64,000 bases of DNA. It comes from Thunnus thynnus (taxonomy: Eukaryota). The notes below the pieces were generated by a model, which did not search any database, was not told the DNA's origin, and was given only the letters and a program-made list of their open reading frames with translations. This document shows, in pieces, positions 2,883 to 60,177 of this stretch (the first letter of the stretch is position 1; each line of letters starts with the position of its first letter). Where the stretch lies: the NCBI RefSeq assembly GCF_963924715.1, contig NC_089527.1:28314551-28378550 (forward strand), written 5' to 3'. The position numbers and the translations under genes are program-made.

Positions 2883-2910
<28 letters not shown>
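2883..2910. repeat. (TA)n microsatellite.
   Basis: tatatatata... 14 units. Confidence 0.9.
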
Positions 2911-2916
<6 letters not shown>

Positions 2917-3059
2917 GCCATCTCCAGAAGAAATCGCACAGTCTATGTCTGCCTTAACCAAACTACCTATAAGCCTAATCATACTAAATCAGACATGGCG
3001 AGCCCAGCCACGTCTGAATCCTAAAGTTGAAGAGACCTCTTTGAGAACCTGGAATCAGT

Positions 3060-3700
3060 GTTGGGGTATATGACTGAAGAGTTGGTGCCTGGCTTTGCAA
3101 CTCAGCTGAAAGAGAAGCTGCACGACTACAGGAAGGGGACAAAACCCTTTGACAGCAACTTGAACAGGCTTTAGCCAGAGCAGAAGCGCCGCAGGCTCAA
3201 TGTAATGCACCAGATGAGGGTGCTAGTGAGCCTCCAGAAGAAGGAGGGAAAGCTGAGTTGAAGGGAAAGAGCGAAAGGCTAGAACAATCCCTCCGAGAAT
3301 GTAATCATGAGCTCGCCACAACAATAGATCGACTTGACAGGCCTGATAACCTCCTTAAGTGGGCAGTAGAGGAAATAAAAGAACTGAAAGCTAAGGTCGG
3401 AGTCTATGCCAAATTTAGAGAAGCTGACCATAAGTACATACGAGACATACGATAGCAACCACAGATAGCCAGGGACAGAGCTAAGGTGTCCCATCAGCAA
3501 CCTGAAACCAAAGAGGAAGAATTGGTAGATGTTAAAGGAGAACTACAACATTCTTTTGAATAAGGTCAAAACCAACAAGAGCCTTTTAATGAAGCTTTCC
3601 ATGAGGAAAGGAAAGAGGTAAGACCCCCTAGGGGCGTTCAAGGAGGCTTGTCCTCACCACTGCTCAGTGGTGCATGAAGCCACCTGTGCGGCCCATAGAG
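3060..3700 (+). other. Decayed coiled-coil-like coding fragment of unknown origin (duplicated at 34330-34960).
   Basis: Reads ..ERLEQSLRECNHELATTIDRLDRPDNLLKWAVEEIKELKAKVGVYAKFREADHKYIRDI.., then continues in shifted frames after stops. No splice-site structure could be assigned. Confidence 0.3.
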
Positions 3701-4540
3701 CAAGCGCACTAGTGACTTACGCCGGCCGGGCTTCTGGTTTAGCCCTCTGGCTAACTTGAATGGGGATAAAATAATTCAATCGTGCAGCTCTTCTAGACTT
3801 TCAAAATGTGATTGGACCGAACGGATCAAATTATGAGAGTGAAACCAGTCATTTCACAGGAGTTGTGACGCTCAAAAAATGTATCCACTGATTTACAAAC
3901 GTCTCTCTCACAATGTTAGTCGATGGAAAAAATCTTTTTGGGCCAGTGTGCATCATGTGATGTTGCAGTTACCCGGTTTGGCCACTATGTCAAATTTACT
4001 TCAAAGCCCAGCACTCTTCCTGTATCCAGTTTGCCCAGTGTTTTCCCTCCTGTATTCTCAGCCTGCTTTTCCCTCCACTCTTCCCTTCTCACCTGCCTGC
4101 ATCATCTTCATTAGTCCTGCCCTTTTCCCAGAATTTTCCCAGCCTATCAGCTTCTTTTATGTTCTTCTGTTTCATCTCCTCAGTCCCCTCACTCAAGTTT
4201 CTCTGCCCATCTGCCCACCTGCACCTCATCTCCTCATTATTTCAGTTAGTATTTCAGTTCTGTGTTTCAGTTCAGTCTTGTTGGATCCTTTGTTCTGTAA
4301 AGTTCTGCTCTGTTCAGTCTGGTTTTGTTCTGCTGTATTAAAGAGACTTCTTTCAGTTCGGTCTAGTTGTTTTGTCCTGCATTTGGGTCCACCTGCTCTG
4401 CTACTCCTGACAGCTATTTGCTTTAAAATGATACTGGAAGCTGTAATTACTGAAAATGTACATTTTAAAAGTTTTAAAATGGTATTTGAGATAAGTGACT
4501 GAATAAACATAAATGTGACATGTCTTTTGATTTATTTCAG

Positions 4541-4687
4541 ACTCCGTTGTCATAAACAACCTGACTGAGGTTCTCCAGTACAGTAATAACAACCTTTCTT
4601 CCGTGTCTGAAGAGAGAGAACTGCTGCTTGCCAACCTCACTGAAATAACTAAAGAGATGGAAAAGCTTCAGAGTTTGTCTGTACAGA
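4541..4687 (+). CDS. Gene A neck (coiled-coil) exon 1, 147 nt, phase 1/1.
   Basis: AG acceptor tttatttcag|ac, donor caga|gtaagt. Encodes DSVVINNLTEVLQYSNNNLSSVSEERELLLANLTEITKEMEKLQSLSVQ with heptad leucines and NLT glycosylation sites. The minus-strand ORF in the track is its antisense artefact. Confidence 0.7.
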
Positions 4688-5303
4688 GTAAGTGACATCT
4701 GTGGCTATACAGTACTGCCCAGCACTGTTCCTGTATCCAGATCTCTTTATACATCCATGGGAGCTACCAGCTTGAGTTTGCCCTGTGTGTTTCCTCCTGT
4801 ATTCTCAGCCTGCTTTTCCTTCCACTCTTCCCTTCTCACCTGCCTGCATCATCCTCATTAGCCCTGTCCTTTTCCCAGTGTTTTCCCAGCTTATCAGCTT
4901 CTTTTCCGTTCTTCTGTTTCATCTCTTAATTTCCCTCACCCATCTGCCCATCTGCACCTCGTCTCCTCATTATTTCAGTTAGTATTTCAGTCCTGTGTTT
5001 CAGTTCAGTCTTGTTGGATCCTTTGTTCTGTTAAGTTCTGCTCTGTTCAGTCTGGTTTTGTTTTGTTCCATTTTGCTGTGCCTGCACACCTGTATCCTTC
5101 TTAAAGAGACTTCTTTCAGTTCGGTCTGGCTGTTTTGTCCTGCATTTGGGTCCACCTGCTCCACTACTCCTGACAGCTATTTGCTTTAAAATGATACTGG
5201 AAGCTGTAATAACTAAAAATGTTCATTTTAAAAGTTTTAAAATGGTATTTGAGATAAGTGACTGAATAAACATAAATGTGACATGTCTTTTGGTTTATTT
5301 CAG

Positions 5304-5450
5304 ATTCTGTTGTCATAAACAACCTGACTGAGCGTCTCCAGGACAGTAATAACAAGCTTTCTTCCATGTCTGAAGAGAGAGACCTGCTGCTTGCCAACCT
5401 CACTGAAAAGACTAAAGAGATGGAAAAGCTTCAGAGTTTGTCTGTACAGA
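5304..5450 (+). CDS. Gene A neck exon 2, 147 nt, phase 1/1.
   Basis: Tandem copy of the exon-plus-upstream-intron module at 3990-4690. Acceptor tttatttcag|at, donor caga|gtgagt. Encodes ..SVVINNLTERLQDSNNKLSSMSEERDLLLANLTEKTKEMEKLQSLSVQ. Confidence 0.7.
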
Positions 5451-5689
5451 GTGAGTGACATCTGTGGCTATACAGTACTGCACACACATTGTAGAAGAGC
5501 AACTGCAGAGAACACTATGCTGAAAATAGAAGATGTTGTGGCAATCTGTCCTATTAATTATACAAATGATCTTCAATCAACAAGTTTGTTGTAACTTGTT
5601 GATTGTAACTGTAAAATAACTTTGTGGATTTGTTCGTGTATTTACTCCGCTTCAAACATTTTAAAATTTTTGTCATCAGGAAATTCCAA

Positions 5690-10009: not shown

Positions 10010-10152
10010 AGAAAACTTGTCCTGCAGGATGGAGGATGTTCGGCTGTTCCTGTTATTTCCTCTCCAGTGAGTCTGGTTCCTGGTCAAGAGGCAGACAGGA
10101 CTGCAGAGAGAAAGGAGCAGATCTGGTGGTTATAGACAGCACTAAAGAACAG
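10010..10152 (+). CDS. Gene A CTLD exon 1.
   Basis: Acceptor tgttacag|ag, donor cag|gtacag. Encodes (K)KTCPAGWRMFGCSCYFLSSESGSWSRGRQDCREKGADLVVIDSTKEQ, with the CPxGW and WxxxxxxC..GAxLxxIxS hallmarks of C-type lectin domains. Confidence 0.8.
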
Positions 10153-10855: not shown

Positions 10856-10965
10856 ACATTCTTGACTACCTTCACTGACGAAGAAACTTGGAGTTGGATT
10901 GGTTTGACTGACAGAGACAAAGAGGGAACCTGGAAATGGATTGATGGAACACCACTGACTTCAAG
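10856..10965 (+). CDS. Gene A CTLD exon 2.
   Basis: Acceptor aaaacag|ac, donor caag|gtttgg. Encodes TFLTTFTDEETWSWIGLTDRDKEGTWKWIDGTPLTS (WIGLxD...EGxWxWxDG motif). Confidence 0.8.
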
Positions 10966-11602: not shown

Positions 11603-11753
11603 GTACTGGGAAACAAATGAGCCTAATAATGGAGGTGTCGGTGAAGAGGACTGTGCACATATCAGGACTGGCAAGAAAACTGAAGACAACTGGAATGATC
11701 TGTCATGTGATGCTTCTCTGCGGTGGATCTGTGAGAAAAATGCTGGTGTATAA
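11603..11753 (+). CDS. Gene A CTLD exon 3 with stop. Carries an EPN Ca/sugar-site motif.
   Basis: Acceptor ctgtag|g. Encodes (R)YWETNEPNNGGVGEEDCAHIRTGKKTEDNWNDLSCDASLRWICEKNAGV* with EPN, WND and three conserved Cys. TAA at 11751-11753. Confidence 0.8.
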
Positions 11754-14519: not shown

Positions 14520-16160
14520 AGTAACACGCTACAGTAAGTTTAGCATGTTACAATGCAAAATGTGCCAAAATCACTTTACTTAGAGCAAACAACCACCTAT
14601 AGTGACTTACAACCAGCTTGTAATGTATTATATCTACCTATTCCTCGGGAATTTCATTACTCCACTTAAAGCACTCAGTGACCAGTTAGAGTAGCTTATA
14701 CTCACATTATAATGCATTACAAGATGATTATAATGTATTCCAACTATGAGAATTTAAAACACTATGACCCTTGCACAAAAAATGTCAGCATGTGACCAGT
14801 TATGAAGTATTATGATACTTAACCTTATTTTTTGTGTTATGATTATTGTTATAAAGCATTATGAATATTTATGAGTACTTATAACTATAATTATACAGTG
14901 CTATAAGCAGAGTATAATGCATTATGAATATGTTTATAATGCATTATAGACATTGGTGTCAAAGAAGTGTTACCCAAAAGGTTATGTGTGTCACACATAA
15001 TCAACTTTGTTCAACCCTGAAAATTGCCACTAAAATGATCTTGAAACAAAAGTTTCCACATCACTCTCAGGTAACTGCACACTTGACCAGGATTGGCTTC
15101 TAAACTACTTGTGATGTCACAGATCATGCTGGCAGGTTTCTCACCTTTAACTCAGATTTAAGGTGAGAAGCACAAACATCCAAATGAAGCAACAATAAGC
15201 AAAACACATTTTTGATTGGAGAGGGATTTTAATGTTAATAAATAAACTAGTTACATTTACAGTAGACTTTTAGAAAAGTTTTACTTCTCAACCAAATATA
15301 CAAAAGATCTTAGCCTGGACACTTTTAACATTCACACACATGCAGCTGATATCATATTTAATGCTGATGTTTTGCACAAAGTACCACGTAAAATAACCAT
15401 TAATATCACTGATGTAAAAGTGAATGCACATAAACACTGATGTTTGTCCAAGTGCTCATTTTTCTGATAAGTTTGTTTTTAATTAGTTATTTGACTATAT
15501 AAAAAGGGGTTGTGACAGCCACACTCAAACCTCTGTCAGGCAGTGGAACAGCTGAGTGGGCGTGTCCCACGGGCTGTCATCTCGCCTCCCAACCATAGAC
15601 GGTAAAAAAACATGGATGTAGTCATCATGACGTCACCGATTGGTTTGTGGACTGCCGTTTTGAAACCTTGTGTTTAGCGATTTGACACTGAGTGGTCACT
15701 CGTGGTATTGCAGCAAAAAAAATCCCCTGCAGCCTAAAAAGTATTTTCCCCATAGACCACCATTGTAAAAGAGGCAACTGTAAAACTGTTAGCAGGACAC
15801 TTTGAACTGCAAACAAGATCAATTATGTATCTTTCTATTATGAATTTTTGATCCATGGAGGTTTTTCATTTGTAAAAATTTACTTGAGCCAAGGAAAGCC
15901 ATATAAAAATTGGTGACATCGTCACAATGTAAAGTCTATATTCAGTGGGCTGCACAACATGGAAGGGTGCCATTTTTGGTCTGGTAGCTCTTATAATACA
16001 TCCATGCTTGCTCCTGACTCTACTACACAGACTCGAGCTCCAAATGACCTCACACAAGCAAGATGGCAGCTCCCTGAAAGGAGATATATTGGCTTCACTT
16101 TTGCATAGAAGTAGGAAGTGGAGACACATCATAATGCAGCTTCTTTGCACTATTTTTGCT
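14520..16160. repeat. Composite unclassified repeat block. It recurs at 60640-62161, and in part at 49560-50400.
   Basis: Near-identical stretches (for example ggttgtgacagccacactcaaacctctgtcagg at 15510 and 61510) contain the short palindromes gtgacatcgtcac and gacgtcaccg. Confidence 0.6.
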
Positions 16161-16471
16161 TAAGACTATTTTTATACTGCCCTCCTTGTTCTGATGGGTG
16201 TCATGTGAAATAATAAGTAACTACTAATTTGTGGTAGTACTGGCAGTACTTGTAGACTGTGAGGAATCATTAGATGAAGCATTAGTCTGGGTTTGATGAC
16301 ACAATTTTATCCTGCTCTTGGTTAAGGCTGTTTGGATTCATCCTCCATTGTATAAATTATGCACATTAGGGGTTCATGCACTGAAAACAGTTTTTGAAAC
16401 CAGATATTGACAAATAGAAGGACATAAGCTGTGTCTACTCTTTAATGTCTCTTGTTTAACATGTTTTACAG

Positions 16472-16613
16472 AGAAAACTTGTCCCGCAGGATGACGTATG
16501 TTCAGTTTTACTTGTTATCTCATCTCCACTAAATCTGGTTCTTGGAAAAAGGCAGAAAAGACTGCAGAGCCAGAGGAGCAGATCTGGTGGTCATAGACAG
16601 TTATGAAGAACAG
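16472..16613 (+). pseudogene. Gene A' pseudo CTLD exon 1.
   Basis: Homologous to 10010-10152 but TGG is changed to TGA (CPAG*RMF), there is a 1-nt deletion, and a downstream in-frame TAG. Splice sites retained. Confidence 0.7.
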
Positions 16614-16621
16614 GTATTCTG

Positions 16622-16623
<2 letters not shown>

Positions 16624-16672
<49 letters not shown>

Positions 16673-16673
16673 G
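16624..16673. repeat. (TG)n microsatellite immediately after the A' pseudo-exon 1 donor.
   Basis: tgtgtg... about 22 units. The D homolog (62640-62670) is interrupted and imperfect. Confidence 0.9.
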
Positions 16674-16798
16674 CTGATAATGTTGACTGTCTACCCTAGA
16701 CTGTAATTAGACATGTATGTCCTGGAAGAGGGTTCCCTCCTTTGCTGCTCTTTATTTAGGTTTCTCATGTGTTTTTTTCTTTCCTTCACATTGAACAG

Positions 16799-16902
16799 GA
16801 ATTCCTCACTAATATTACAAAGCAAGAAAGTTGGATTGGTTTGAGTGACAGAGAAAAAGAGGGAACCTGGAAATGGACAGATGGAACTCCACTGACTCAG
16901 GC
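16799..16902 (+). pseudogene. Gene A' CTLD exon 2 of a second subfamily. Open frame, but part of a disrupted gene.
   Basis: Acceptor ttgaacag|ga, donor ggc|gtaagg. Encodes EFLTNITKQESWIGLSDREKEGTWKWTDGTPLTQ. Differs from the A/B/C exon 2 (TFLTTFT...). Confidence 0.6.
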
Positions 16903-17465
16903 GTAAGGCAGAAATGTTATTCACACCTACTCCAAGGTTGTTTTTGTTTGTTTGCTTATTTTGTTTGTTTTATTGGTTTGTTTGTTTGTATTATTATTAC
17001 TTTAGTATAAAAGGTGTTACTACATCATTATTTTTATATTATCTGTCACTATGATAATTATTATTCATTATTATCTATATTATTTCATATTTATTATCAA
17101 TGATGCAACAACAATCATGATGCTTGTCATTGTCATTTTCACTTATCATTCTCATTGTTATAGAAATAGTTATCATGAATGCTGTTACACATGCCATTAT
17201 TGACATCAGGAGAAGGATGATGTATATTAATATTATTATATAGACAGCTATTATTAATATTATTACACATGTTTATAGAATGATGATTATGATGTTGATA
17301 ACTGTGGATAATTTATGTAATAATGGTCTATCAATTTTTGCATAGATTATTATCAGGATGAAAAGATGATGATACTGTTATTATTATTGTCATGATTATT
17401 ATACATATTAATGGGATGATGATGACGACAACATTATTTATCTATGCTATTTTTAGAATTTGATG

Positions 17466-17501
<36 letters not shown>

Positions 17502-19130
17502 TATTATATAATATATGTTATACATATTATTATTATTGGCATTAATATTAATTTTGATATCATTTTAAGAATTAAGAAACATGTAGTATTTGGTAACAGG
17601 CCGGATTTCAGTCTGTTAAGTTCAGTTCAGTTACTGAACTCTGTTCATTTCTACCGTTTTACAAGTGTGAGAATACACAGACACCTTCAGGTTCAGACCA
17701 TACACAGACATACAATTAACAATTACACTGAACCTCCTCACTCAACAACCTACTCTATTCACCTACTTCTTCTCTTTTCTTTCTATTCTCACTCTCTTGC
17801 GTTAAATCATTTTTTATTTATCATTATTATTTATTTTATTTTTTATTAACTTGTTTGCATACTCATTTATCTATCTTTTTTTATGTTTTATTCCGTTATG
17901 TTTGAGCCAACCATATCTGAATGATGGGACCACCTCGGAGTGAGCCCTGGTGACTGGGGGGTGCTTGGGGGACTGGACTGGTTTGGGACAGCTTGGAGTC
18001 AGAGGACCTGATCCCCACTAAGCCCTTCTCCAAGTAGAAAGTTGCTCCTCAGACCCAGTTAAACAGACCCCTCCTGTAGATGTGGGGCTGATCTAAAGGG
18101 GATCTGACCTACAACAGGCCAGCCACCTCTTACAGGAGTGGTGGCAGCCTACAGACAAAGAAAGCAGGGAAGAGGAGAAGCGGAAAAGAGCTAAAAAATT
18201 AAGAATAAAAAAAGAATAAAACAAGCAAACAAAATTGAAAAGAAAAGAGACAAAGAAAGGGAAAATAAATAAATACATCAAAAATTCTGTCCTGACCTGA
18301 CCTGCCCCAGATCCACCAGATGGTGCCTGTCCTCTAAGATTGTGGCTGTGTTATTTTTTTTCTTTTTCTCTTTCTTTCTTGGGGTTAATACGGTCTCTTC
18401 CTTTTTGCTCTCTTTTTGTTCTCTCTCCCCTTTTTATCTTTCACACAGAAAACCCACCCACTCACACAAACACACACACACACACACACACACCTACCTA
18501 CACCTACCTGAGTCTAGTTCTCCCCCTTGTCTTCTGCTGTCATGTGTGTCTTCATGTTGGTCACTTGTATTGCACTATAAACAAAAAAAGATCTAAGCAG
18601 ACACAAATAAGCTGATTGTGAGCAGAAAAAAGCAGTTAGCAGTTTTACACACAATGTGTGTATTGTTGGAAAAATCACCCTAACATCATATGCCGATATA
18701 AACCTATGTGTACAGTGTATAAAAATGAGTTCTACATTAAAGCTGCATTCATTGTTTGTTTTGTTATGTTTTTTGGCTACTTGGAGAGTAGAAAATACAA
18801 TAAACAGAACACAACATATTAATTGACCTTTTAAAGTTGTTATGGTGAACTTGGCCAATGGTTGCCTATTTACACTCTCAGCGTACATTGAACAGTAGAA
18901 TTTTGTTTCTGACAAATGTTACCCCCCCCCCCAAAAAAAAGTGTTTGACTTTTTTCCTGCTGTGTTATTGTCCACAGGACAACACTGGGTGTCAGCATGG
19001 AAGGTTACAAAGTTTTACAAACTTATATTGTCTCAAAATAATCACAGTGTGTTGGCACATAACCAAAAACTACAGAAGCTGTGTTTATGACTGTGTTAAG
19101 ATTGACAATCATGATTCTCATTCTCATTAA

Positions 19131-19207
19131 CTACTGGGCGATGAAGCAGCCTGATAAAGGAGATTGAGATTCGAAATGGGGAGAAGAAGACTGTGCGACA
19201 ATCAGAG
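19131..19207 (+). pseudogene. Gene A' CTLD exon 3 remnant (5' half only). Homology ends about 110 bp before the ERV LTR.
   Basis: Reads YWAMKQPDKGD*..GEEDCATIR, homologous to YWxxNQPDNG..GEEDCVHIR. Preceded by the homologous intron end (tcatgattctc...). Homology stops at about 19207. Confidence 0.6.
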
Positions 19208-25420: not shown

Positions 25421-25867
25421 GGGTAAAATCTGTCCCTGTTTAATTACGTCGCACAACTGTTCAGCAAGCTCCAGAATCACATAAGAATGTTATTGATTTA
25501 CCCCGTACCTTTAATACTATCTATGGTTTAGTCCCTTCCTGTGATAGTAAAATTTCAGCTGTTTGTAATGATAGGATTTCATCTACCTCTGTCTCCCTAT
25601 CTGCTAGTGTGTGTGTGTGTGTGTCGGTGTTCCGGAGCCAGTCATACAGAGTAGTTTCTTTCCTGTTCTTCTTGTCTGGGTTTCGCTCCTCCGCTCCCTC
25701 CTTTCCCCCGTCCTCCTCCTCTCTCGCCTCCTAATTTCTTTGGAGCTCTGCAGTCTTGTGCATACTGTCAAGGTTTGCCACAATTACATTTATATTTTTC
25801 ATTTAGCAGATGCTTTTATCCAAAGCGACGTACATATGAGACTGATACAACACAAGCAAGGATCTAG

Positions 25868-28133: not shown

Positions 28134-28179
28134 ATGGAAGAAATCTATGTTGATACCAAACATTCAACAATTCAGACAG
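28134..28179 (+). CDS. Gene B exon 1 (start codon, cytoplasmic tail).
   Basis: ATG at 28134 preceded by an in-frame TAG at 28107. Encodes MEEIYVDTKHSTIQT. Donor cag|gtaaga. Ends in phase 1. Confidence 0.6.
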
Positions 28180-28280: not shown

Positions 28281-28382
28281 GTCCGAAGACTTCAGAGAGG
28301 AGATTTCATGGAGCTGTTCTTGTCTTTCTGGGGCTGCTGAGTGTTTTCCTGCTGGCTGGACTCATCGGCCTCAGAGTCTACT
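28281..28382 (+). CDS. Gene B transmembrane exon.
   Basis: Acceptor ctctgttcag|gt, donor tact|gtgagt. Encodes GPKTSERRFHGAVLVFLGLLSVFLLAGLIGLRVY. One 22-residue hydrophobic helix following a basic RR, which fits type II membrane topology. Confidence 0.75.
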
Positions 28383-32217: not shown

Positions 32218-35200
32218 ATCTAGATGAATGACTGTTCTGGTAAATATTTTTAAAAACACAATCTGTTATCCAAACTAAAGGACATCCTAACAAACAAAAG
32301 TCAAAGTACAAGATTAAACCCTGCTATAAAAGGACTCACAGATCTTTAATACAGGTAACGTTACTAACACCACACAACAGCTCTATTAACATGATGTTTT
32401 CCTAAGCTGTTAAAAGGTTGTTGACCTCAGTAACTGTTGTAAACACAGCACTAAAACTAACAGATAGTTTCAGTTATTAGTCAACAAAATGCTGATTCAT
32501 TGTTCATCAGACTGATTCATCTATCAGTCAAACTGTTGTCTTGATTTGGCTTTAGGTTTGAGCAAATTAATTCCCCATAAGTCAGTTTTGTTATTTTGTT
32601 ATATTTCAAAAACTGATCTGTATTCAGGACCATATACACCGTGTGAGAATCCAGATTTGTTTTTAAGATCAAGACTGATCGGTCCATCTATCCATCCATA
32701 AAGCCTCCATTTATTTATGTGTTGTAAATAAATATTGTTAATATTTAAAAATTAGGTAAATAAATATTGTTGATGTTTATTTACCTAATTTTTGTGCACT
32801 TGTTTCATTTCAAGGAGGGAAGTAATGGCTTCAATAAAATTCATAAATTGAATTATTCATATGTTGACACTGTTTGCTGTCAACTGTTTGTTCATCTGAA
32901 TTCTGCGTTCTGCATTTGCAAACAAAGTGAAAAAAGTAAATTGACAGGTGACTTTTGTGCCTGGACAAGTGAAAGGTAAATTTACTTGTCCGATGGACAA
33001 GTGCCTCAGGAGGTTAATGTCAAGCCCTGCCTCATGAAATGACTAAAAAGCAGAGGCTTCAGAATTTCTTCATGTGAAATTTTCAGAATTCTCAATTTTC
33101 ATGAAAAAGGTAATGCAGTCAAGGCTGACTCACCTTGGTATTTTCATGGCCAGAGGGAGTAGAAAGAACCCATTATCATAAACTATCATGTACATTATAG
33201 GTAGGTTGGTTTCAGAGGCTGGTGACAGTTGTGGCTAATCACATTCACATTCACCCTTTTTGTCCAATTTAAAAGCAGGGCTCTCCCTGACATGATGCAG
33301 TGTTTTCTAGGAGATAACCTCAACTCATACTCTTACCCAGGAAGATTTTCATCGGACTGTCTAATGTTTCTACAAAAAGCCGCGTATGCCATCATTTGAA
33401 ATATACTATATCTGCATAAAAGTCTACACATAAGGGCTTTACGTTGAATTTCTGGATATTGAAAATAAGATGGTCAACATGATGCACCATTTGACTTAAA
33501 ATCACAATCACCCACACACTATCCACACTTGCAGTTACAAATCCTACTGTAACGCATATAAATAAAACTAAAATTAAAAACATCATTACTATACTGTAGA
33601 TTGTATTATCTTGTTTTCTTTTCTTTGATTATTATTATTTTTTACATTTAGTTCTTTTTATTTAGATGCAGCTGTTTTCACATGCAAAAAGAAATACTGG
33701 GAACAATAAAATTGCCTTTTCAATTCTACTTTCCATTAATTGGCAATTATCATAATGATCTTTTGCAATCCACAAAATGCGGATTTTATTTTTTCGGTTA
33801 TATCATTATAAATTTTAACCATCAGTGCTATGTGAACAATTATCATTTTATTTCACTTCATCATGCTGGTCAAAGCAGCCCCATGTCTATTTGCCCAGAT
33901 TTTGCCCAACTCATTTAAATGAAGAGTATAAAGAATAAACCAAGGATCACTATAATTAGTCTCTGATGCTATTTCACTTGTGCTCGCGTCATCCGCCTGC
34001 TGCTCTGACTCCAGGGCGGCTGCTGTGTCTTCTTTCCTTTCCTCTCCAGCACAGCTAGCCTCTCCCACTCCACTTATCTTCAAGCTGGGTCTCTCCTCCT
34101 CCCTGACACAGCTACTTCCATCTCCAGACTCAGCTGCTTCTGTCAGGACATGTTGTGTTAGATTTTAAACAAGCTAATAATTGGATGTTAAAGTCAAAGC
34201 TAGGTGGTAGCTTCAATAACTTCGTTGTCTGCCTTAACCAAACTACCTATAAGCCTAATCATACTAAATCAGACATGGCGAGTCCAGCCACATCTGAATC
34301 CTAAAGTTGAAGAGACCTCTTTGAGAACCTGGACTCAGTGTTGGGGTATATGACTGAAGAGTTGGTGCCTGGCTTTGCAACTCAGATGAAAGAGAAGCTG
34401 CACGACTACAGGAAGGGGACAAAACCCTTTGACAGCAACTTGAACAGGCTTTAGCCAGAGCAGAAGCGCTGCAGGCTCAATGTTGAGGGTGCTAGTGAGC
34501 CTCCAGAAGAAGAAGGGAAAGCTGAGTTGAAGGGAAAGAGCGAAAGGCTAGAACAATCCCTCCAAGAATGTAATCATGAGCTCGCCACAACAATAGATCG
34601 ACTTGACAGGCCTGATAACCTCCTTAAGTGGGCAGTAGAGGAAATAAAAGAACTGAAAGCTAAGGTCGGAGTCTATGCCAAATTTAGAGAAGCTGACCAA
34701 AAGTACATACGAGACATACAATAGCAACTACAGATAGCCAGGGACAGAGCTAAGGTGTCCCATCAGCAACCTGAAACCAAAGAGGAAGAATTGGTAGATG
34801 TTAAAGGAGAACTACAACATTCTTTTGAATCAGGTCAAAGCCAACAAGAGCCTTTAAATGAAGCTTTCCATGAGGAAAGGAAAGAGGTAAGACCCCCTAG
34901 GGGCGTTCAAGGAGGCTTGTCCTCACCACTGCTCAGTGGTGCATGAAGCCACCTGTGTGGCCCATAGAGCAAGCGCACTAGTGACTTAGGCCGGCCGGGC
35001 CGGCTACTTCTGGTTTAGCCCTCTGGCTAACTTGAATGGGGATAAAATAATTCAATCGTGTAGCTCTTCTAGACTTTCAAAATGTGATTGGACCGAACGG
35101 ATCAAATTATGAGAGTGAAACCAGTCATTTCACAGGGGTTGTGACGCTCAAAAAATGTATCCACTGATTTACAAACGTCTCTCTCACAATGTTAGTCGAT

Positions 35201-35852
35201 GGAAAAAATCTTTTTGGGCCAGTGTGCATCATGTGATGTTGCAGTTACCCGGTTTGGCCACTATGTCAAATTTACTTCAAAGCCCAGCACTCTTCCTGTA
35301 TCCAGATCTCTTTATACATCCATGGGAGCTACCAGCTTGAGTTTGCCCTGTGTGTTTCCTCCTGTGTTCTCAGCCTGCTTTTCCCTCCACTCTTCCCTCC
35401 TCACCTGCCTGAATCATCTTCATTAGTCCTGCCCTTTTCCCAGAATTTTCCCAGCCTATCAGCTTCTTTTACGTTCTTCTGTTTCATCTCCTCAGTCCCC
35501 TCACTCGAGTTTCTCTGCCCATCTGCCCACCTGCACCTCATCTCCTCATTATTTCAGTTAGTATTTCAGTCCTGTGTTTCAGTTCAGTCTTGTTGGATCC
35601 TTTGTTCTGTTAAGTTCTGCTCTGTTCAGTCTGGTTTTGTTCTGCTGTATTAAAGAGACTTCTTTCAGTGTATTCTGGCTGTTTTGTCCTGCATTTGGGT
35701 CCACCTGCTCCGTTACTCCTGACAGCTATTTGCGTTAAAATGATACTGGAAGCTGTAATTACTAAAAATGTACATTTTAAAAGTTTTAAAATGGTATTTG
35801 AGATAAGTGACTGAATAAACATAAATTTGACCTGTCTTTTGATTTATTTCAG

Positions 35853-36020
35853 ACCACAGTGTGCGCAGTTCAGCTGAAGATATCATAAACAACCTGACTG
35901 AGCATCTCCAGGACAGTAATAACAACCTTTCTCCCATGTCTGAAGAGAGAGACCTGCTGTTTGCCAACCTCACTGAAATAACTAAAGAGATGGAAAAGCT
36001 TCAGAGTTTGTCTGTACACA
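35853..36020 (+). CDS. Gene B neck exon 1 (168-nt variant).
   Basis: Acceptor tttatttcag|ac, donor caca|gtgagt. Encodes (Y)HSVRSSAEDIINNLTEHLQDSNNNLSPMSEERDLLFANLTEITKEMEKLQSLSVH. Confidence 0.7.
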
Positions 36021-36632
36021 GTGAGTGACATCTGTGGCTATACAGTACTGCCCAGCACTGTTCCTGTATCCAGATCTCTTTATACATCCATGGGAGCTAC
36101 CAGCTTGAGTTTGCCCTGTGTGTTTCCTCCTGTATTCTCAGCCTGCTTTTCCCTCCACTCTTCCCTCCTCACCTGCCTGCATCATCTTCATTAGTCCTGT
36201 CCTTTTCCCAGTGTTTTCCCAGCCTATCAGCTTCTTTTCCGTTCTTCTGTTTCATCTCCTCATTCCCCTCACCCATCTGCCCATCTGCACCTCATCTCCT
36301 CGTTATTTCAGTTAGTATTTCAGTCCTGTGTTTCAGTTCAGTCTTGTTGGATCCTTTGTTCTGTAAAGTTCTGCTCTGTTCAGTCTGGTTTTGTTTTGTT
36401 CCATTTTGCTGTGCCTGCACACCTGTATCCTTCTTAAAGAGACTTCTTTCAGTTCGGTCTGGCTGTTTTGTCCTGCATTTGGGTCCACCTGCTCCACTAC
36501 TCCTGACAGCTATTTGCTTTAAAATGATACTGGAAGCTGTAATTACTGAAAATGTTCATTTTAAAAGTTTTAAAATGGTATTTGAGATAAGTGACTACAT
36601 ATACATAAATGTGACATGTCTTTTGATTTCAG

Positions 36633-36779
36633 ACTCCGTTATCATAAACAACCTGATTGAGCGTCTCCAGGACAGTAATAACAAGCTTTCTTCCGTGTCT
36701 GAAGAGAGAGACCTGCTGCTTGCCAACCTCACTGAAATAACTAAAGAGATGGAAAAGCTTCAGAGTTTGTCTGTACAGA
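36633..36779 (+). CDS. Gene B neck exon 2 (147 nt).
   Basis: Acceptor tttgatttcag|ac, donor caga|gtgagt. Encodes ..SVIINNLIERLQDSNNKLSSVSEERDLLLANLTEITKEMEKLQSLSVQ. Confidence 0.7.
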
Positions 36780-39700
36780 GTGAGTGACATCTGTGGCTAT
36801 ACAGTACTGCACACACATTGTAGAAGAGCACCTACAGAGAACACTATGCTGAAAATAGAAGATGATGTGGGAATCTGTCTAATCTTTTAATTATACAAAT
36901 GATCTTCAATCAACAATCAATGTTGTAACTTGTTGATTGTAACTGTAAAAAACTTTGTGGATTCGTTCTTGTATTTACTCATCTTCAAACATTTTAAAAT
37001 TTTTGTCATCAGGAAATTCCAAACACCGTCAACATTTAGCATGTTAGCATTCTAACCAATAATATCATGCTAACATGCTAAATGTGACTTTTGTAACACG
37101 CTACAGTAAGTTTAGCATGTTACAATGCAAAATGTGGTAACACTTGCTATGACGCCTATGATTATAATACATTATAAACATACTTGTAATGCAGTGTGAT
37201 CTGCTTATAGCATTGTATAATTATAGTTCTAAGCACTCATAAATATTCATAATGCTTTATAAGAATAATCATAACACATTATGATGTATTCTATAATGAC
37301 TTATAAGGCCAAGTATCATAATACTTCATAATTGCTGATCACTCACTGACCTTTTTTTTCATAGTGATCACAGTGTATTATAATTCTCATAGTTGTAATG
37401 CATTATAAAATGATTATAATGTCTCAATAATCACTGTTATGATGCATTAAAATGTGATTGTAAGTTACTCTAAGTGGTTATTGTTTGCTTGTTAAGTCAA
37501 GTAAAGAAAATATCATTAAATCTATGCAAAAACACTCAGGACCCTATTTTAACGATCTAAGCGCACGGTCTGAAGGTTTTAATTGCTGAAAGTATGGAAA
37601 CCTGATCACTGTAATCTCAAAAATGTTAAAGATTATTTGTTAAATATTGTCCAAAAATTAAAACATTAATTTTAATCATATAAAAAATCATCATACACAG
37701 TTGTCAGGACTTGATCAGCTCTCCGAGGTGCTGATCCTGCTGCTGGCAGCAGCTAAGAGCTGTGCACCATTCTTTCCTTCTTTAGATTAATCATTGTTTT
37801 CACTTAATTTATTTCCCCATGTGTTCCTCATGTCCTCATGTATTGATGGGCAGGAAATCCATGTCTGATTCGTTGTTGAAATCCGTTTGCTGGGTCTGAC
37901 ACACACCGTCAACCTGACAGGTTTGTTTAAATACCTCTGTGTATTGCCACGATATGGTCAAATAATTAGACAATTTCGTCCGTCATTACTGCAATTAATT
38001 AATTCTGATAAATATTAGGACTAAACATTATGACATGTATTTTTTAAAATATGTTAATGTACACAACAATATTCTTTCACAATATAATCCTTTCTGTGAT
38101 CTTTGCATGTTTGTGTGCTGCTGTGTGTCTGTGTGTGTATGCGCGTTGTTCACCTGCCTATGTAGGCATATTACTGTCTTGATAATGCGCCTTAAAAATA
38201 ACAGTGAAATACTGTACCATCAACCTCAGACCAGGTTTTTGTTGCTCAATAACGAAATCGATTTCCGCTGCCTCAATATAGCAATGCACCAACAATGCGC
38301 CCGACCACACCTCATTTTAAGACCAACACGCCCATGGGCACTGAGATGGGCACAAGTGGTAGTGCTATTTAAACTACGTGGGTGCTTAAACTAGCAAAGA
38401 CTTTGTACCGGGTGTAAGATAGGGCCCAAAATGTTGTAAAATTAATTTGTTCAAAGAGTCATAACACACAATGAAGTGAGTACTCCCATTTGACAACGAA
38501 CAACTGAATGATGGACATTTACAATTCACTAATGTAAGTGAGAAATACTGCCTACACTCATAATTTGAAAATTAGCTATATTGGCTCAAAAAAACAAGTA
38601 ACTTTAACTTTAACTAAAATATATTACATAGAATAATATTGCTGTATTGTTTGTTTATATTTCATAAGTATTATATTTAGACTTGGTCCTCAAAATGAGT
38701 TGAAGTGAATGAGGAGCCTGACACCTGGGAGGAATGGTGGTGTTGACGGCGGATGACGGGGACAGTAGTGGACACTAGCTTATTAGTAGATGACTTTGGA
38801 CAGAGGTAAGACTGCTGATTTTTGACAAGTTCTACTAAAGTGAAGTGTTAACACCAGTGCTATTTTTTTTAAGGAGTCACTTTTGTTGATCAAACGTTTA
38901 CATAAAAGTAAAGTATACAGCTACAGGTAAAGTATCATTGTTTCAGGTATTGTCTATCATTTGAGTCAATTTAGTGAGTTCTTTGGGGAAACATTACATT
39001 AGTCAAATGTAAATGTCCATCATTCAGTTGTTCATCATCAAAAAGTTGTGTCACATTGGAGTACTCAATTTCTGTTATGACACTTTAAACAAATAAATGA
39101 ATTTTACAATGTTTTGTGTTCTTGCATAGATTTAATATTTTTCACTCAAAGCAAACAATGACCACTTATAATGACTTATAACCAGCGTGTAATGTATTAT
39201 ATCTGCCCATACCTCGAGAATTTCATTACTTCACTTAAAACACCCAATGACCACCTAGAGTAACTTATAATCACATTTTAATGCATTATAACAATGATTA
39301 TATTTTTTTACAACTATGAGAATTATAAAACACTATGACCCTTGCAAAAAATGTCAGCGTGTGACCAGCAATGAAGTATTATGATACTTGGCCTTATAAG
39401 TCATTATAAAATGCTTTATAATGTGTTATGATTATTGTTATAAAGCATTATGAATATTTGAGTGCTTATAACATAATTATACAGCTATAAGCAGATTATA
39501 ATGCATTATAAATATGTTTATAATACATTATAAACATGGGTGTCAAAGAAGTGTTACTCAAATAGTTATGTGTATCACATGTAATTAACTTTGTTCAACC
39601 CTGAAAATTGCCACTAAAATGATCTTGAAACAAATGTTTCCACATCACTCTGAGGTAATTCGTCACTTGACCAGGATTAGCTTCCGAACTACTTGTGATG

Positions 39701-41303: not shown

Positions 41304-41446
41304 AGAAAACTTGTCCTGCAGGATGGAGGATGTTCAGACGTTCCTGTTATCTCCTCTCCAGTGAGTCTGGTCCCTGGTCAAGAGGCAGACAGGACTGCCG
41401 AGAGAAAGGAGCAGATCTGGTGGTTATAGACAGCACTGAAGAACAG
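41304..41446 (+). CDS. Gene B CTLD exon 1.
   Basis: Encodes (K)KTCPAGWRMFRRSCYLLSSESGPWSRGRQDCREKGADLVVIDSTEEQ. Acceptor gttacag|ag, donor cag|gtacag. Confidence 0.8.
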
Positions 41447-43075: not shown

Positions 43076-43179
43076 ACATTCTTGTCTACCTTCACTGAGG
43101 TAGAAACTTGGATTGGTTTGACTGACAGAGACGAAGAGGGAACCTGGAAATGGATTGATGGAACACCACTGACTTTAAG
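43076..43179 (+). CDS. Gene B CTLD exon 2.
   Basis: Encodes TFLSTFTEVETWIGLTDRDEEGTWKWIDGTPLTL. Donor aag|gtttgg. Confidence 0.8.
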
Positions 43180-43790: not shown

Positions 43791-43953
43791 GTACTGGAGG
43801 TCAAATCAGCCTGATAATGGAAATGGAGATCCGCAGTGGGGTGAAGAGGACTGTGTACATATCAGGGCTGAGGGGAAAACTGGAGACAACTGGAATGATC
43901 TGTCATGTGATACTTCTCTGCAGTGGATCTGTGAGAAAAATGCTGGTGTATAA
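43791..43953 (+). CDS. Gene B CTLD exon 3 with stop. Carries a QPD motif.
   Basis: Encodes (R)YWRSNQPDNGNGDPQWGEEDCVHIRAEGKTGDNWNDLSCDTSLQWICEKNAGV*. TAA at 43951-43953. Confidence 0.8.
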
Positions 43954-46358: not shown

Positions 46359-46410
46359 ATGGAGGCAATTTATGCAAATGTTGACTCAATAACTTCAACA
46401 AAACAGACAG
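46359..46410 (+). CDS. Gene C exon 1 (start codon, cytoplasmic tail).
   Basis: ATG at 46359 preceded by an in-frame TAG at 46338. Encodes MEAIYANVDSITSTKQT. Donor cag|gtaaaa. Confidence 0.6.
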
Positions 46411-46489: not shown

Positions 46490-46591
46490 GTCTGGGGAGC
46501 TCACAGAGGAGATTTCATGGAGCTCTTCTTGTCTTTCTGGGGCTGCTGAGTGTTTTCCTGCTGGCTGGACTCATCGGCCTCGGTGTCCACT
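46490..46591 (+). CDS. Gene C transmembrane exon.
   Basis: Encodes GLGSSQRRFHGALLVFLGLLSVFLLAGLIGLGVH. Acceptor ctctgttcag|gt, donor cact|gtgagt. Confidence 0.75.
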
Positions 46592-47515
46592 GTGAGTCTG
46601 TTTCACATTCAGAAGTTTAAGTCAGACTGAATTTAGGAGGAACATTCTACAGCAAGATGTCTATTTTTCTTTTCCATTTATGTTGTACTGCTCTGCTTAT
46701 TCTCAGCCAAACTCTGCAGGTAGAGGTCTGGATGAACATGAGCATCACCTCAACTTTCTCCTTGGTGCCATATTTTAAACCATGTTTGAATGCTGGTGTA
46801 GGTCATATGTGTCATGTCTTTGATCTCTGGACACCTGCATGGACTTGTTTCAATGATGTTTCATAAAACTACATTAATAACAGGGAAAATATTCTCCCAT
46901 GTATCTGTATGTAAACGCCATTTTGCAGGTGAAAAAAAAAAAACCTTTAAGGTTACTATGTGGGACAATACTTCAAATCTAAAAACATTCAGTTTGCTTG
47001 TAAAATTGTACTGGCACGGATACATGTCACGCTTTATTTTTATTTTTTTACTAGGGCTAAATGTTGGTGAACCTGTTGTGAGAAAACATCAGGGTGGCAT
47101 AGTATTTACAACATGTGCTGTATGTGCTGGGCTGCTCAGTGTCAAACACCAGGACTGCTTTTATGTCGTAGTCAAGGCTGGATGAAATCTGGAAAAAACT
47201 TGCTTAGATGCTTAGAATAACTTCTTGAGATCTGGATCCTTTGCTCTGTAAAGTTCTGCTCTGTTCAGACTGGTTTTGTTTTGTTCCATTTTGCTGTGCC
47301 TGCACACCTTTATTACAGAGACTTTCTTCTGTTCATTCTGGCTGTTTTGTCCTACATTTGGGTTCACCTGCTCCACTACTCCTGACAGCTATTTGCTTTA
47401 AAATGATACTGGAAGCTGTAATTACTAAAAATGTACATTTTAAAAGTTTTAAAATGGTATTTGAGATAAGTGACTGAATAAACATAAATTTGACCTGTCT
47501 TTTGATTTATTTCAG

Positions 47516-47683
47516 ACCACAGTGTGCGCAGTTCAGCTGAAGATGTCATAGACAACCTGACTGAGCGTCTCCAGGACAGTAATAACAACCTTTCTTCCGT
47601 GTCTGAAGAGAGAGACCTGCTGCTTGCCAACCTCACTGAAATAGCTAAAGAGATGGAAAAGCTTCAGAGTTTGTCAGTACAGA
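47516..47683 (+). CDS. Gene C neck exon (168 nt, single copy).
   Basis: Encodes (Y)HSVRSSAEDVIDNLTERLQDSNNNLSSVSEERDLLLANLTEIAKEMEKLQSLSVQ. Acceptor tttatttcag|ac, donor caga|gtgagt. Confidence 0.7.
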
Positions 47684-48081
47684 GTGAGTGACATCTGTGG
47701 CTATACAGTACTGCACACACATTGTAGAAGAGCACCTACAGAGAACACTATGCTGAAAATTGACTGAAAGATTGATTGATTTATTTATTGACTGGGACAG
47801 TGTGCAATTTGAAACATTAAAGATGCACTGCACCAGAGTTAGCTTGAAGCTAATTTGCATCTGTAGTCCCCGACAAAAAACATACAACAGCACAACAATA
47901 AACAGTAGAAAGCAAAAAAAAAAAAAAACCCCACACAGAACACACCATACAAAATACAAAGCTACACACAACAGCACATCACATACACCCACAATGTCAA
48001 TTAGAAATTAATAATATAAACTTGTCAAATTAAAAGCAAGACTACCTGCGCTAATGAGAAGACCATAGATGGAGTTCAGAG

Positions 48082-52075: not shown

Positions 52076-52218
52076 AGAAAACTTGTCCTGCAGGATGGAG
52101 GATGTTCAGATGTTCCTGTTATTTCCTCTCCAGTGAGTCTGGTTCCTGGTCAAGAGGTAGACAGGACTGCAGAGAGAAAGGAGCAGATCTGGTGGTTATA
52201 GACAGCACTGAAGAACAG
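52076..52218 (+). CDS. Gene C CTLD exon 1.
   Basis: Encodes (K)KTCPAGWRMFRCSCYFLSSESGSWSRGRQDCREKGADLVVIDSTEEQ. Confidence 0.8.
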
Positions 52219-53890: not shown

Positions 53891-53994
53891 ACATTCTTGT
53901 CTACCTTCACTGAGGTAGAAACTTGGATTGGTTTGACTGACAGAGACGAAGAGGGAACCTGGAAATGGATTGATGGAACACCACTGACTTTAAG
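53891..53994 (+). CDS. Gene C CTLD exon 2.
   Basis: Encodes TFLSTFTEVETWIGLTDRDEEGTWKWIDGTPLTL. Confidence 0.8.
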
Positions 53995-54606: not shown

Positions 54607-54769
54607 TTACTGGGCAACAAATCAGCCTGATAATGGAAATGGAGTTCCGAAGGTCGGTGAAGAGGACTGTGTACATATCAGGTCTGGCAAGGAAACTGAA
54701 TACAACTGGAATGATCTGTCGTGTGATGCTTCTCTGCGGTGGATCTGTGAGAAAAATGCTGGTGTATAA
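54607..54769 (+). CDS. Gene C CTLD exon 3 with stop. Carries a QPD motif.
   Basis: Encodes (S)YWATNQPDNGNGVPKVGEEDCVHIRSGKETEYNWNDLSCDASLRWICEKNAGV*. TAA at 54767-54769. Confidence 0.8.
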
Positions 54770-58191: not shown

Positions 58192-58293
58192 GTCTGGGGA
58201 GCTCACAGGGGAGATTTCATGGAGCCCTTCTTGTCTTTCTGGGGCTGCTGAGTGTTTTCCTGCTGGCTGGACTCATCGGCCTCAGTGTCCACT
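58192..58293 (+). pseudogene. Gene D TM exon (intact frame).
   Basis: Encodes GLGSSQGRFHGALLVFLGLLSVFLLAGLIGLSVH. Confidence 0.6.
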
Positions 58294-60177
58294 GTGAGTC
58301 TGTTTCACATTCAGAAGTTTAAGTCAGACTGAATTTAGGAGGAACATTCTACAGCAAGATGCCTATTTTTCTTTTTCATTTATGTTGTACTGCTCTGCTT
58401 ATTCTCAGCCAAACTCTGCAGGTAGAGGTCTGGATGAACACGAGCATCACCTCAACTTTCTCCTTGGTGCCATATTTTAAACCATGTTTGAATGCTGGTG
58501 TAGGTCATATGTGTCATGTCTTTGATCTCTGGACACCTGCATGGACTTGTTTCAATGATGTTTCATAAAACTACATTAATAACAGGGAAAATATTCTCCC
58601 ATGTATCTGTATGTAAACGCCATTTTGCAGGTGAAAAAAAATACCTTTAAGGTTACTATGTGGGACAATACTTCAAATCTAAAAACATTAAGTTTGCCTG
58701 TAAAATAGTAACGGTACGGATACGTGTCACACTTCTTTGGTTTTTTTTACTAAGGTTAAATGCCCCCCTCTTTCTTTCTCTCTCAACCCAACTGGTCAAA
58801 GCAGATGGCCGCCCACAAAGAACCGAGTTCTGCTTGAGATTTCTACCCATTAAAGGGGAGTTTTTCCTTGCCGCTGACACCAAATGCTTAATCACGGGGG
58901 TTGTTGGGTCTCTGTAAATTAAAGAGTACAGTCTAGACCTGCTCTATGTGAAAAGTGCCCTGAGATGACTTTTGTTGTGATTTGGCGCCATATAAATAAA
59001 AATTGATTGATTGATAAAATTGAAATGTTATTGAACCTGTTGTGAGAAAACATCAGGGTGGCATAATATTTACAACATGCGCTGTATGTGCTGGGCTGCT
59101 CAGTGTCAAACACCAGGACTGCTTTTATGTCGCAGTCAAAGCTGGATGAAAATCTGAAAAAAAACTTGCTTTGAATAACTTCTAGAGATCTGGGAACGCG
59201 GTGATATTTTTTCTACTACAGTGGTTTGTTGTGGACAGAAATCCTTAGCTATTGTCATGGTTCTGTCCCAGTCTGGCTCTATGTCCTTACACCAGTCCAC
59301 CAGGTGCCCTCAGACTTTTTCCCTGTTTGTTGAACTGGACTGAGTGGCAGTAAGCCCTGGAAGTTGATATTGAAGTTTGCTTTCACTAGTTGTTCTCTTA
59401 AGGAAATGTGACTGAGGACTGTTGCTTGCTACACACTGACCCTCGTAGATACTATGTGCAAAAGTGAACTGAAAGTCAGAGCAACAGTTGCCTTTTTGTT
59501 GTTACATGCAGGCCACTCCACTTGACAAACTTATTATTTCATGTTTATGTCAACAGCAATGTATGTTTGAGTTGTTTAAAGACTCTAAGGTTATCAGTCT
59601 TATGTTGAGGTGTGTTTGCCGTTTCTGCTCAGTGTGACTTGTGTATTTAACTTATATTCATGTGTATGCTGGGTTTTTGGTTTTCAGTTTGCCCTGTGTT
59701 TTTCCTCCTGTATTCTCAGCCTGCTTTTCCTTCCACTCTTCCCTCCTCACCTGCCTGAACCATCTTCTTTAGCCCTGCTCTTTTCCCAGTGTTTTCCCAG
59801 CCTATCAGCCTCTTTTCCGTTCTTCTGTCTCATCTCCTCATTCCCCTCATCTGCTCACCTGCATCTCATCTCCTCATTATTTCAGTTAGTATTTCAGTCC
59901 TGTGTTTCAATTCAGTCTTGTTGGATCCTTTGTTCTGTAAAGTTCTGCTCTGTTTAGTCCGGTTTCTTTTTGCTCCATTTTGCTGTGCCTGCTCACCTTT
60001 TACTACAGAGACTTTCTTCAGTTCATTCTCGTTGTTTTGTCCTGCATTTGAGTCCACCTGCTCCGCTACTCCTGACAGCTATTTGCTTTAAAATGATACT
60101 GGAAGCTGTAATTAATGAATGTACATTTTAAGTGACTAAATAAACATAAATGTGACATGTCTTTTGATTTATTTCAG

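Follow-up and report, generated by a model that had tools for sequence, protein, structure and literature searches.

In human DC-SIGN and L-SIGN, the neck is built of 23-amino-acid (69-bp) repeats that form a variable number tandem repeat (VNTR) inside exon 4, and the number of neck repeats of CLEC4M is 4 to 9 (PMC3261175, PMC6272597). Here, we describe necks of a different genomic layout in a Thunnus thynnus cluster of CD209/CLEC4E-like type II C-type lectin paralogs, five copies that we call A to E. The cluster was analyzed in a window of 64,000 nucleotides (RefSeq assembly GCF_963924715.1, contig NC_089527.1, positions 28,314,551 to 28,378,550 of the forward strand), and all positions given without a locus label are those of the window. 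The tuna proteins are like DC-SIGN and L-SIGN in being type II C-type lectins with a repeated, presumably helical neck between the transmembrane (TM) segment and the carbohydrate recognition domain (CRD). In contrast with the human VNTR inside one exon, each 49- to 56-amino-acid unit of the tuna neck has its own exon and intron, and the copy step is ~0.7 kb. The short repeats within one exon that define a DC-SIGN-type VNTR are absent from the tuna neck, and Tandem Repeats Finder detected no intra-exonic repeat array in the neck exons. A preliminary description of the window had set its layout apart from that of human DC-SIGN, and the published structure of exon 4 agrees with this.

The stalk of CD23 (FCER2), another type II C-type lectin, is a heptad-repeat coiled coil (PMC6791321). 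The CD23 unit is 21 amino acids (3 heptads) long, compared with 49 to 56 amino acids (7 to 8 heptads) in tuna, and the neck units have no sequence relationship. Each CD23 stalk repeat is reportedly encoded by a separate 63-bp exon, of which human has three and mouse four. If so, the tuna neck, with one unit per exon, would by analogy resemble the CD23 stalk in layout.

In-frame duplication or skipping is limited to exons whose flanking introns have the same phase, and class 1-1 predominates in the extracellular regions of metazoan proteins (PMC8001218). The tuna neck and TM exons are like the class 1-1 modules of Patthy in phase symmetry, and the tuna case is a textbook, fairly ordinary duplication of a class 1-1 symmetric module. 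The classic class 1-1 modules, however, fold autonomously and are mostly beta, while the tuna unit would be one stretch of an uninterrupted alpha-helical coiled coil. DC-SIGN-like genes of fish cannot be matched clearly one-to-one with mammalian orthologues, and the Fugu DC-SIGN-F cluster is a lineage-specific expansion of DC-SIGN-like group II lectins (PMC514892). CsCD209 of tongue sole has a single coiled-coil region of ~58 amino acids (residues 65 to 122) before the CRD (PMC5618497), which matches one 168-nt tuna neck exon in size. Neither the Fugu nor the tongue sole study reports duplicated neck exons, and our literature search found no paper describing neck-exon duplication in teleost CD209/DC-SIGN-like lectins.

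Results

Two tandem exon-plus-intron modules in the neck region of gene A

Repeat detection and BLAST within the window identified direct repeats at 4028 to 4721 and 4775 to 5484 that are 88.3% identical over 724 aligned bp (E = 0). The preliminary description had placed tandem copies of an exon-plus-intron unit within 3990 to 5455, and an identity of 88% over ~700 bp bears this out. BLAST of the unit against the window detected further copies at 35340 to 36078, 36108 to 36813, 47233 to 47717, and 59685 to 60388. Module A1 is bounded by the motifs CCAGCACTNTTCCTGTATCCAG and ATACAGTACTGC, and the unit limits set by such junction motifs are 4008 to 4718 and 4719 to 5481. The limits first proposed (3990 to 4690 and 4745 to 5455) lie near these but break the repeat at an arbitrary point in its period. 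The modules and their neck exons are as follows.

4008 to 4718, plus strand: module A1 (711 bp), with a pyrimidine-rich stretch of intron, the neck exon, and the first 31 nt of the next intron
4541 to 4687, plus strand: neck exon A1, 147 nt, phase 1/1, 49 amino acids (7 heptads)
4719 to 5481, plus strand: module A2 (763 bp)
5304 to 5450, plus strand: neck exon A2, 147 nt, phase 1/1
35284 to 36051, plus strand: module B1
35853 to 36020, plus strand: neck exon B1, 168 nt, 56 amino acids (8 heptads)
36052 to 36810, plus strand: module B2
36633 to 36779, plus strand: neck exon B2, 147 nt
47233 to 47714, plus strand: single module of gene C, homologous over the 3' ~485 bp only, without the pyrimidine-rich 5' part
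47516 to 47683, plus strand: neck exon of gene C, 168 nt, exact RefSeq match
59685 to 60385, plus strand: single module of pseudogene D
60178 to 60354, plus strand: neck exon of pseudogene D, 177-nt form, with an in-frame TAA

Gene models were made by projecting exon boundaries from splice sites read directly in the sequence. Both 147-nt exons of gene A have tttatttcag before them and gtaagt or gtgagt after them, and both are open only in the frame that starts from exon nucleotide 3, which places phase 1 at both exon ends. The positions, length, and phase 1/1 originally assigned to these exons are thus confirmed by AG/GT boundaries and a single open frame. In all copies, the acceptor and its polypyrimidine tract are identical and the donor is GTAAGT or GTGAGT, as judged by consensus with the splice sites left unscored. 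The intron between the two neck exons of gene A is 616 nt long. The protein assembled from the gene C model is identical to XP_067460381.1 (Thunnus thynnus), which independently validates the neck-exon boundaries. Adjacent homologous exons with their intron, lengths divisible by three, like phases, and consensus splice signals mark the array as a class 1-1 tandem exon duplication.

Each unit had been described as containing a pyrimidine-rich intron. This is correct for the first ~400 nt of each unit, which are 67 to 78% pyrimidine, but not for the final ~130 nt of the intron. We rejected the idea that the pyrimidine-rich intron is a dispersed repeat or transposable element, as it is confined to module copies (in the window and in the T. 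maccoyii locus L001) and is absent from other fish loci. Rfam had no match in the module region, and the minus-strand and alternative open reading frames (ORFs) found in 3900 to 5550 were low-complexity ones only. At 36029 to 36784, a frame of 252 codons without a stop extends across the entire B2 intron and on into the exon; it is probably a noncoding by-product of pyrimidine-rich composition, in which there is little A or G and few stop codons.

The array in related assemblies

Homologous loci were labeled L001 (T. maccoyii), L002 (Sparus), L003 (Scomber), L004 (Sebastes), L005 (Melanotaenia), and L006 (T. albacares). The preliminary description had named an assembly artifact as a possible source of the tandem structure. 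Tandem and segmental duplicates are indeed error-prone in assemblies, and the T. maccoyii B orthologue contains a suspicious 738-bp, 98%-identical repeat around a retrotransposon. The A copies, however, are only 88% identical, that is, ~12% apart, and are distinguished by several indels. The structure also occurs twice in the window (A and B) and again in the independent assemblies of T. maccoyii (L001, 39508/40279) and T. albacares (L006, 7885/8635, a neck-exon pair 750 bp apart). Both modules are found in the T. maccoyii orthologue of gene A, whose locus matches the window at 97 to 98% identity. The presence of the array in T. maccoyii and T. albacares indicates that it is real and older than tuna speciation, and we regard expansion during assembly as scarcely credible.

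The T. maccoyii B orthologue (L001, 61142 to 68251) has three neck-exon copies, at 61685, 67338, and 68073. The extra copy lies in the 738-bp repeat, which flanks a 4.9-kb long terminal repeat (LTR)-retrotransposon-like insert with gag zinc knuckle and integrase ORFs on the minus strand. The intron and exon types of this orthologue are a mosaic of copy-1 and copy-2 states. The three-copy array may be a real difference between species (two versus three copies) or an assembly problem.

The two-module state arose once, before genes A and B separated

Genes A (1 to 10.5 kb) and B (32.2 to 41.8 kb) are collinear, with ~95% identity, and the internal junction, CAGTACTGC joined to CCAGCACTG, is identical in the two. 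The window contains exactly four occurrences of the left-boundary motif, two in A and two in B, with none in C or D. The intron of modules A1 and B1 carries an insertion of 14 nt and a deletion of 30 nt; in A2, B2, C, and D, both states are reversed. The identical junction, the four occurrences of the boundary motif, and the common indels together indicate that the two-module state arose once, before the duplication that separated A from B. Module number does vary among paralogs as first proposed (two in A and B, one in C and in D), with the corrections that D is a pseudogene and that a fifth copy, E, lacks a neck exon altogether. The 2/2/1/1 pattern nevertheless reads as one event followed by inheritance, not as repeated turnover.

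The opposite polarity, in which two modules are ancestral and C and D each lost one by unequal crossing-over, has some points in its favor. In C and D, both the intron indel and the 3' flank of the single copy are of type 2, a pattern that a recombinant deletion between copy 1 and copy 2 could leave, and a two-exon gene is present in Scomber too. Such a deletion should, however, keep the left boundary of copy 1, and CCAGCACTNTTCCTGTATCCAG is absent from C and D; the homology of D begins only at TTTGCCC. Furthermore, the Scomber duplication has different breakpoints and is therefore not the same event, and other single-neck paralogs (e.g., at L001 25926) retain the long form of the exon. Based on these observations, we consider loss from a two-module ancestor very unlikely.

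Exon length variants and gene conversion

The neck exon occurs in forms of 147, 168, and 177 nt, and alignment of the copies places all three behind the same acceptor. The extra 21 nt of the 168-nt exons (B1 and C) lies just inside the exon, and the use of an upstream acceptor to produce this form is ruled out by the alignment. The variant is thus an in-frame indel, not the 21-nt N-terminal extension that had been suggested. Pseudogene D has the 177-nt form, and so do two functional proteins, P0010 and P0125, which contain HSVRSSAEDISVIIDNL. Removal of 30 nt just after the acceptor converts the 177-nt form to the 147-nt form, and removal of 9 nt converts it to the 168-nt form, and so the two shorter forms look like nested in-frame deletions of the juxtamembrane linker of the 177-nt form.

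Exons B1 and C have the same derived bases across the acceptor (AAATTTGACCTG) and are identical in the first 27 nt of the exon, a state that is present in no other copy, including the T. maccoyii B copies. This tract (35790 to 35880 in B1 and 47450 to 47545 in C) is direct evidence of a short gene conversion between paralogs, which also sets the length form of the B1 exon.

A second neck exon preserves the reading frame and the heptad register

The 102-nt TM exon and the neck exons are all phase 1/1. The codons formed at the junctions are T+AC (Tyr) between TM and neck, A+AC or A+AT (Asn) between neck and neck, and A+AG (Lys) between neck and C-type lectin-like domain (CTLD). Since the neck exon has a length divisible by three and is phase 1/1, the frame is kept with either one or two neck exons, as the preliminary description had claimed. 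The claim does not extend to skipping of all neck exons, which creates T+AG, a TAG stop codon, at the TM-CTLD junction; at least one neck exon is therefore required.

The 49-amino-acid unit is exactly 7 heptads long, and the 56-amino-acid unit is 8 heptads long. In the best heptad register, the hydrophobic fraction is 0.69 to 0.70 at the a and d positions versus 0.17 to 0.20 elsewhere, and one and the same register scores best in each 28-amino-acid segment taken along the exon junction, in A as well as in B. The a and d residues are nearly invariant among the copies, which differ mostly at other positions, with the exception of I35K in A2. In the AlphaFold2 model of a compact homologue with two neck exons (Melanotaenia P0048), residues 30 to 165 form one helix with a predicted local distance difference test score (pLDDT) of ~80 to 93 and with no break at the exon junction. 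The TM segment of this homologue is also helical in the model.

The neck units carry various numbers of N-glycosylation sequons (A1, 3; A2, 2; B1, 3; B2, 1; C, 3), and several of the nonsynonymous differences between copies abolish sequons (T8I and N17K).

Are both neck exons used?

Frame and register are consistent with a neck in which both exons are spliced in, and several observations weigh against this reading or against its details. Comparisons of the exon copies gave 16 to 22 nonsynonymous variable states versus 1 synonymous state (binomial p of 0.03 to 0.09, with 22% expected), and the neck exon is conserved no better than the flanking intron. Exact look-ups of an annotated T. thynnus B protein with two necks, with neck 1 only, or with neck 2 only found none, and the protein search with the two-neck A query returned no match of ≥90% identity. 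Not every unit is a whole number of heptads (lengths of 150, 156, and 174 nt in other species, and the 177-nt form, are exceptions), and so preservation of register is a tendency and not a rule. Finally, A1, A2, B1, and B2 are about equally far apart in substitutions (93 to 97% identity), which would fit either a rapid succession of events or concerted evolution. The order of events consequently rests on the indels and the junction and is blurred by concerted evolution.

Purifying selection thus failed as evidence that both exons are used, as no signature of it was found on the exon copies. The CTLD exons compared between A, B, and C gave ratios of nonsynonymous to synonymous divergence (pN/pS) of 1.1 to 2.2, a pattern of family-wide relaxed or diversifying evolution. 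Because the CTLD exons behave like the neck exons in pN/pS, the selection test cannot tell a used exon from an unused one.

The duplication could be real and yet contribute only one copy to each transcript, with the other copy a silent passenger or with the two mutually exclusive, so that neck length is constant and only neck sequence varies. Alternative splicing is common among tandem exon duplicates. In gene B, either neck exon alone gives an intact, in-frame isoform; neither exon copy has a signal of purifying selection, and the collection yielded no T. thynnus protein with two necks. On the other hand, both copies keep identical strong acceptors (tttatttcag) and GTAAGT or GTGAGT donors, and the ORF is open in all 12 functional-gene copies from three Thunnus species, while the copy in pseudogene D has a stop codon. 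The 616-nt intron between the exons would impose no steric exclusion. In addition, the compact T. albacares model P0003, a predicted protein, joins neck 1 to neck 2 and then to the CTLD, and compact two-neck models are also found in Melanotaenia. We conclude that use of one copy per transcript is unlikely and that the stalk of paralogs A and B has most likely been lengthened by seven heptads.

Neck-exon duplication in other fish and chimeric annotations

Annotated multi-repeat homologues were rejected as evidence of copy number because five of the models are chimeric across several paralogs. The best match, T. maccoyii P0001, has four neck units and spans 65 kb, with TM, neck, and CTLD exons from at least three paralogs. 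The Sparus P0014 (93 kb) and Scomber P0027 (27 kb) models each span several paralogs, the Sebastes P0025 model extends for 21 kb across four genes with one neck exon each, and the T. albacares P0124 model is a chimera of four TM-neck combinations with four TM segments. The longest chimeric prediction is a 502-amino-acid model with four TM segments. The phase 1/1 symmetry of the TM and neck exons explains why such RefSeq/Gnomon models are in frame, and most multi-repeat RefSeq proteins of this lectin family are chimeric models. An alternative is that the phase 1/1 TM and neck exons of the paralogs form a shared pool from which read-through splicing makes real multi-neck proteins such as P0001; this would allow combinatorial variation in stalk length from one cluster, but we think it unlikely.

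The comparison was therefore kept to compact loci (Melanotaenia L005, Scomber gene 1, and T. albacares P0003). Scomber gene 1 has two 105-nt phase 1/1 exons (35 amino acids, or 5 heptads), and its duplicated segment consists of the exon and ~800 nt of downstream intron. In Melanotaenia, the left breakpoint lies inside the exon, where a formerly coding GCAG became a new acceptor, giving exons of 174 and 150 nt. Since the breakpoints differ in every case, the Scomber, Melanotaenia, and tuna duplications are separate events. The idea that the neck grows by tandem exon-plus-intron duplication, with which the preliminary description had begun, is supported by the tuna locus and reinforced by these duplications with other breakpoints. 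The exon lengths 105, 147, and 168 nt are multiples of 21.

A neighboring "hepatic lectin-like" paralog of T. maccoyii, P0023 (L001, 83066 to 83322 and 84524 to 84701), has 42-nt tandem repeats in one exon. The repeat is 14 amino acids (two heptads) long and is derived from the ERDLLNA..TKE motif that it has in common with the exon-encoded necks, and T. thynnus P0033 and P0087 are similar. P0023 belongs to the same family and cluster as tuna A and B, but its expansion is within one exon, in the style of DC-SIGN. Together with the exon duplication in A and B, its intra-exonic repeats indicate that both modes of neck lengthening occur in the cluster.

Gene content of the window

CTLD-type exons (CPAGW.., WIGL, EPN/QPD, and WND) lie downstream of each neck region. 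The protein search returned teleost matches named "CD209 antigen-like," "CLEC4E-like," and "CLEC10A-like," with Thunnus species ranked first; CD209-type names of homologues are automated annotation. The gene B model is intact (290 amino acids, two neck exons), as is the gene C model (243 amino acids, one neck exon). Gene A is intact from neck exon A1 onward (C-terminal 231 amino acids, two neck exons), and its TM exon and first exons lie upstream of the window.

10010 to 10152, plus strand: gene A CTLD exon 1 (Pfam Lectin_C)
10856 to 10965, plus strand: gene A CTLD exon 2 (WIGL)
11603 to 11753, plus strand: gene A CTLD exon 3 (EPN, WND, stop codon)
28134 to 28179, plus strand: gene B exon 1 (ATG; phase 1 at its end)
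28281 to 28382, plus strand: gene B TM exon, 102 nt, phase 1/1
41304 to 41446, plus strand: gene B CTLD exon 1
43076 to 43179, plus strand: gene B CTLD exon 2
43791 to 43953, plus strand: gene B CTLD exon 3 (QPD, WND, stop codon)
46359 to 46410, plus strand: gene C exon 1 (protein identical to XP_067460381.1)
46490 to 46591, plus strand: gene C TM exon, 102 nt, phase 1/1
52076 to 52218, 53891 to 53994, and 54607 to 54769, plus strand: gene C CTLD exons

Pfam Lectin_C is matched by B (E = 8e-24) and A (E = 5e-25), and WIGL and the conserved cysteines are present in the CTLDs. The sugar-binding motifs are EPN...WND in A and QPD...WND in B and C; EPN is of the mannose/GlcNAc type, and QPD is of the galactose type. 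Compared with B and C, CTLD exon 3 of gene A has a 12-nt deletion in the loop after EPN, which is also present in the T. maccoyii orthologue. The N terminus of B and C is ~25 amino acids long and is followed by AVLVFLGLLSVFLLAGLIGL, a putative signal-anchor TM segment that predicts type II topology. In their CTLD, Ca2+/sugar motifs, predicted topology (of B and C), and heptad neck, the intact paralogs fit the group II (type II transmembrane) C-type lectin-like receptors of the DC-SIGN/CD209-like kind.

The TM-to-neck intron is 7.5 kb in B versus 0.9 to 1.9 kb in C and D. Just 5' of module 1, this intron contains stop-riddled, coiled-coil-like ORF fragments at ~2900 to 3900 in A and at the homologous positions 34226 to 35280 in B, which look like a degraded transposable element. 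On the minus strand at 25793 to 25846, Rfam matches the UnaL2 3' element of a long interspersed nuclear element (LINE) with 57.8 bits (gathering score, 55), which marks a LINE insertion between paralogs.

The two remaining copies have lost parts of the gene or its reading frame.

16472 to 19206, plus strand: pseudogene E, remnants of CTLD exons only, with no TM or neck exon
16472 to 16616 (with the TGA of D and a frameshift), 16793 to 16897, and 19120 to 19206 (with a stop codon), plus strand: pieces of pseudogene E
58192 to 58293, plus strand: TM exon of pseudogene D, preceded by an exon 1 without an in-frame ATG
62483 to 62625, plus strand: CTLD exon 1 of pseudogene D, with an in-frame TGA (CPAG*RMF)

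In copy D, the first upstream stop codon is reached before any in-frame ATG, and there is a TAA in the neck exon and a TGA in CTLD exon 1; these lesions identify it at the sequence level as a pseudogene with one neck exon. D and E have the identical TGG-to-TGA stop in CTLD exon 1 (CPAG*RMF), and the flank of E at 14858 to 16778 is ~97% identical to that of D at 60858 to 62775. The stop in common and the similarity of the flanks indicate that an already dead gene copy was itself duplicated. In both, a (TG)n microsatellite starts only a few bases from the donor of CTLD exon 1 (16624 to 16673 in E and ~62632 to 62670 in D).

Discussion

We propose that the ancestor of genes A and B underwent one tandem duplication of a ~0.7-kb segment, which would have taken in the complete neck exon, both of its splice sites, ~545 nt of the intron before it, and 31 nt of the intron after it. 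A later segmental duplication that produced A and B would have carried the two-module array into both genes. If both copies are spliced, the product would be an in-frame protein with an alpha-helical coiled-coil stalk that is one unit longer and has an unbroken a/d register; at ~0.15 nm per residue, the added stalk would measure ~7 nm. Short in-frame deletions at the 5' end of the exon (from 177 nt to 168 or 147 nt) and gene conversion between paralogs would have followed. That both neck exons are present in the mRNA and that they affect stalk length and CRD presentation is what we infer from exon structure and coding potential. Taken as a whole, the explanation by a single ~0.7-kb duplication in the A/B ancestor, with both exons spliced in and a longer stalk as the result, is one that we consider likely.

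The comparison with other fish has two practical by-products: teleosts have duplicated neck exons repeatedly, and many lectins of the family that are annotated with several repeats are chimeric models. Gene predictors stitch the phase 1/1 exons of neighboring paralogs into in-frame chimeras, so that the number of repeats in an annotated fish lectin cannot be relied on unless the locus itself is checked. The compact loci suggest that teleost CD209-like lectins have lengthened their necks by duplication of whole exons, in integral heptads, independently in at least three lineages.

Stalk length sets the projection of the sugar-binding domains and oligomerization, and human L-SIGN is polymorphic in its number of neck repeats, a variation whose possible links to infection have been investigated. 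With one versus two neck units and with EPN versus QPD CRDs, the paralogs of the tuna cluster are a natural series for tests of stalk length and avidity.

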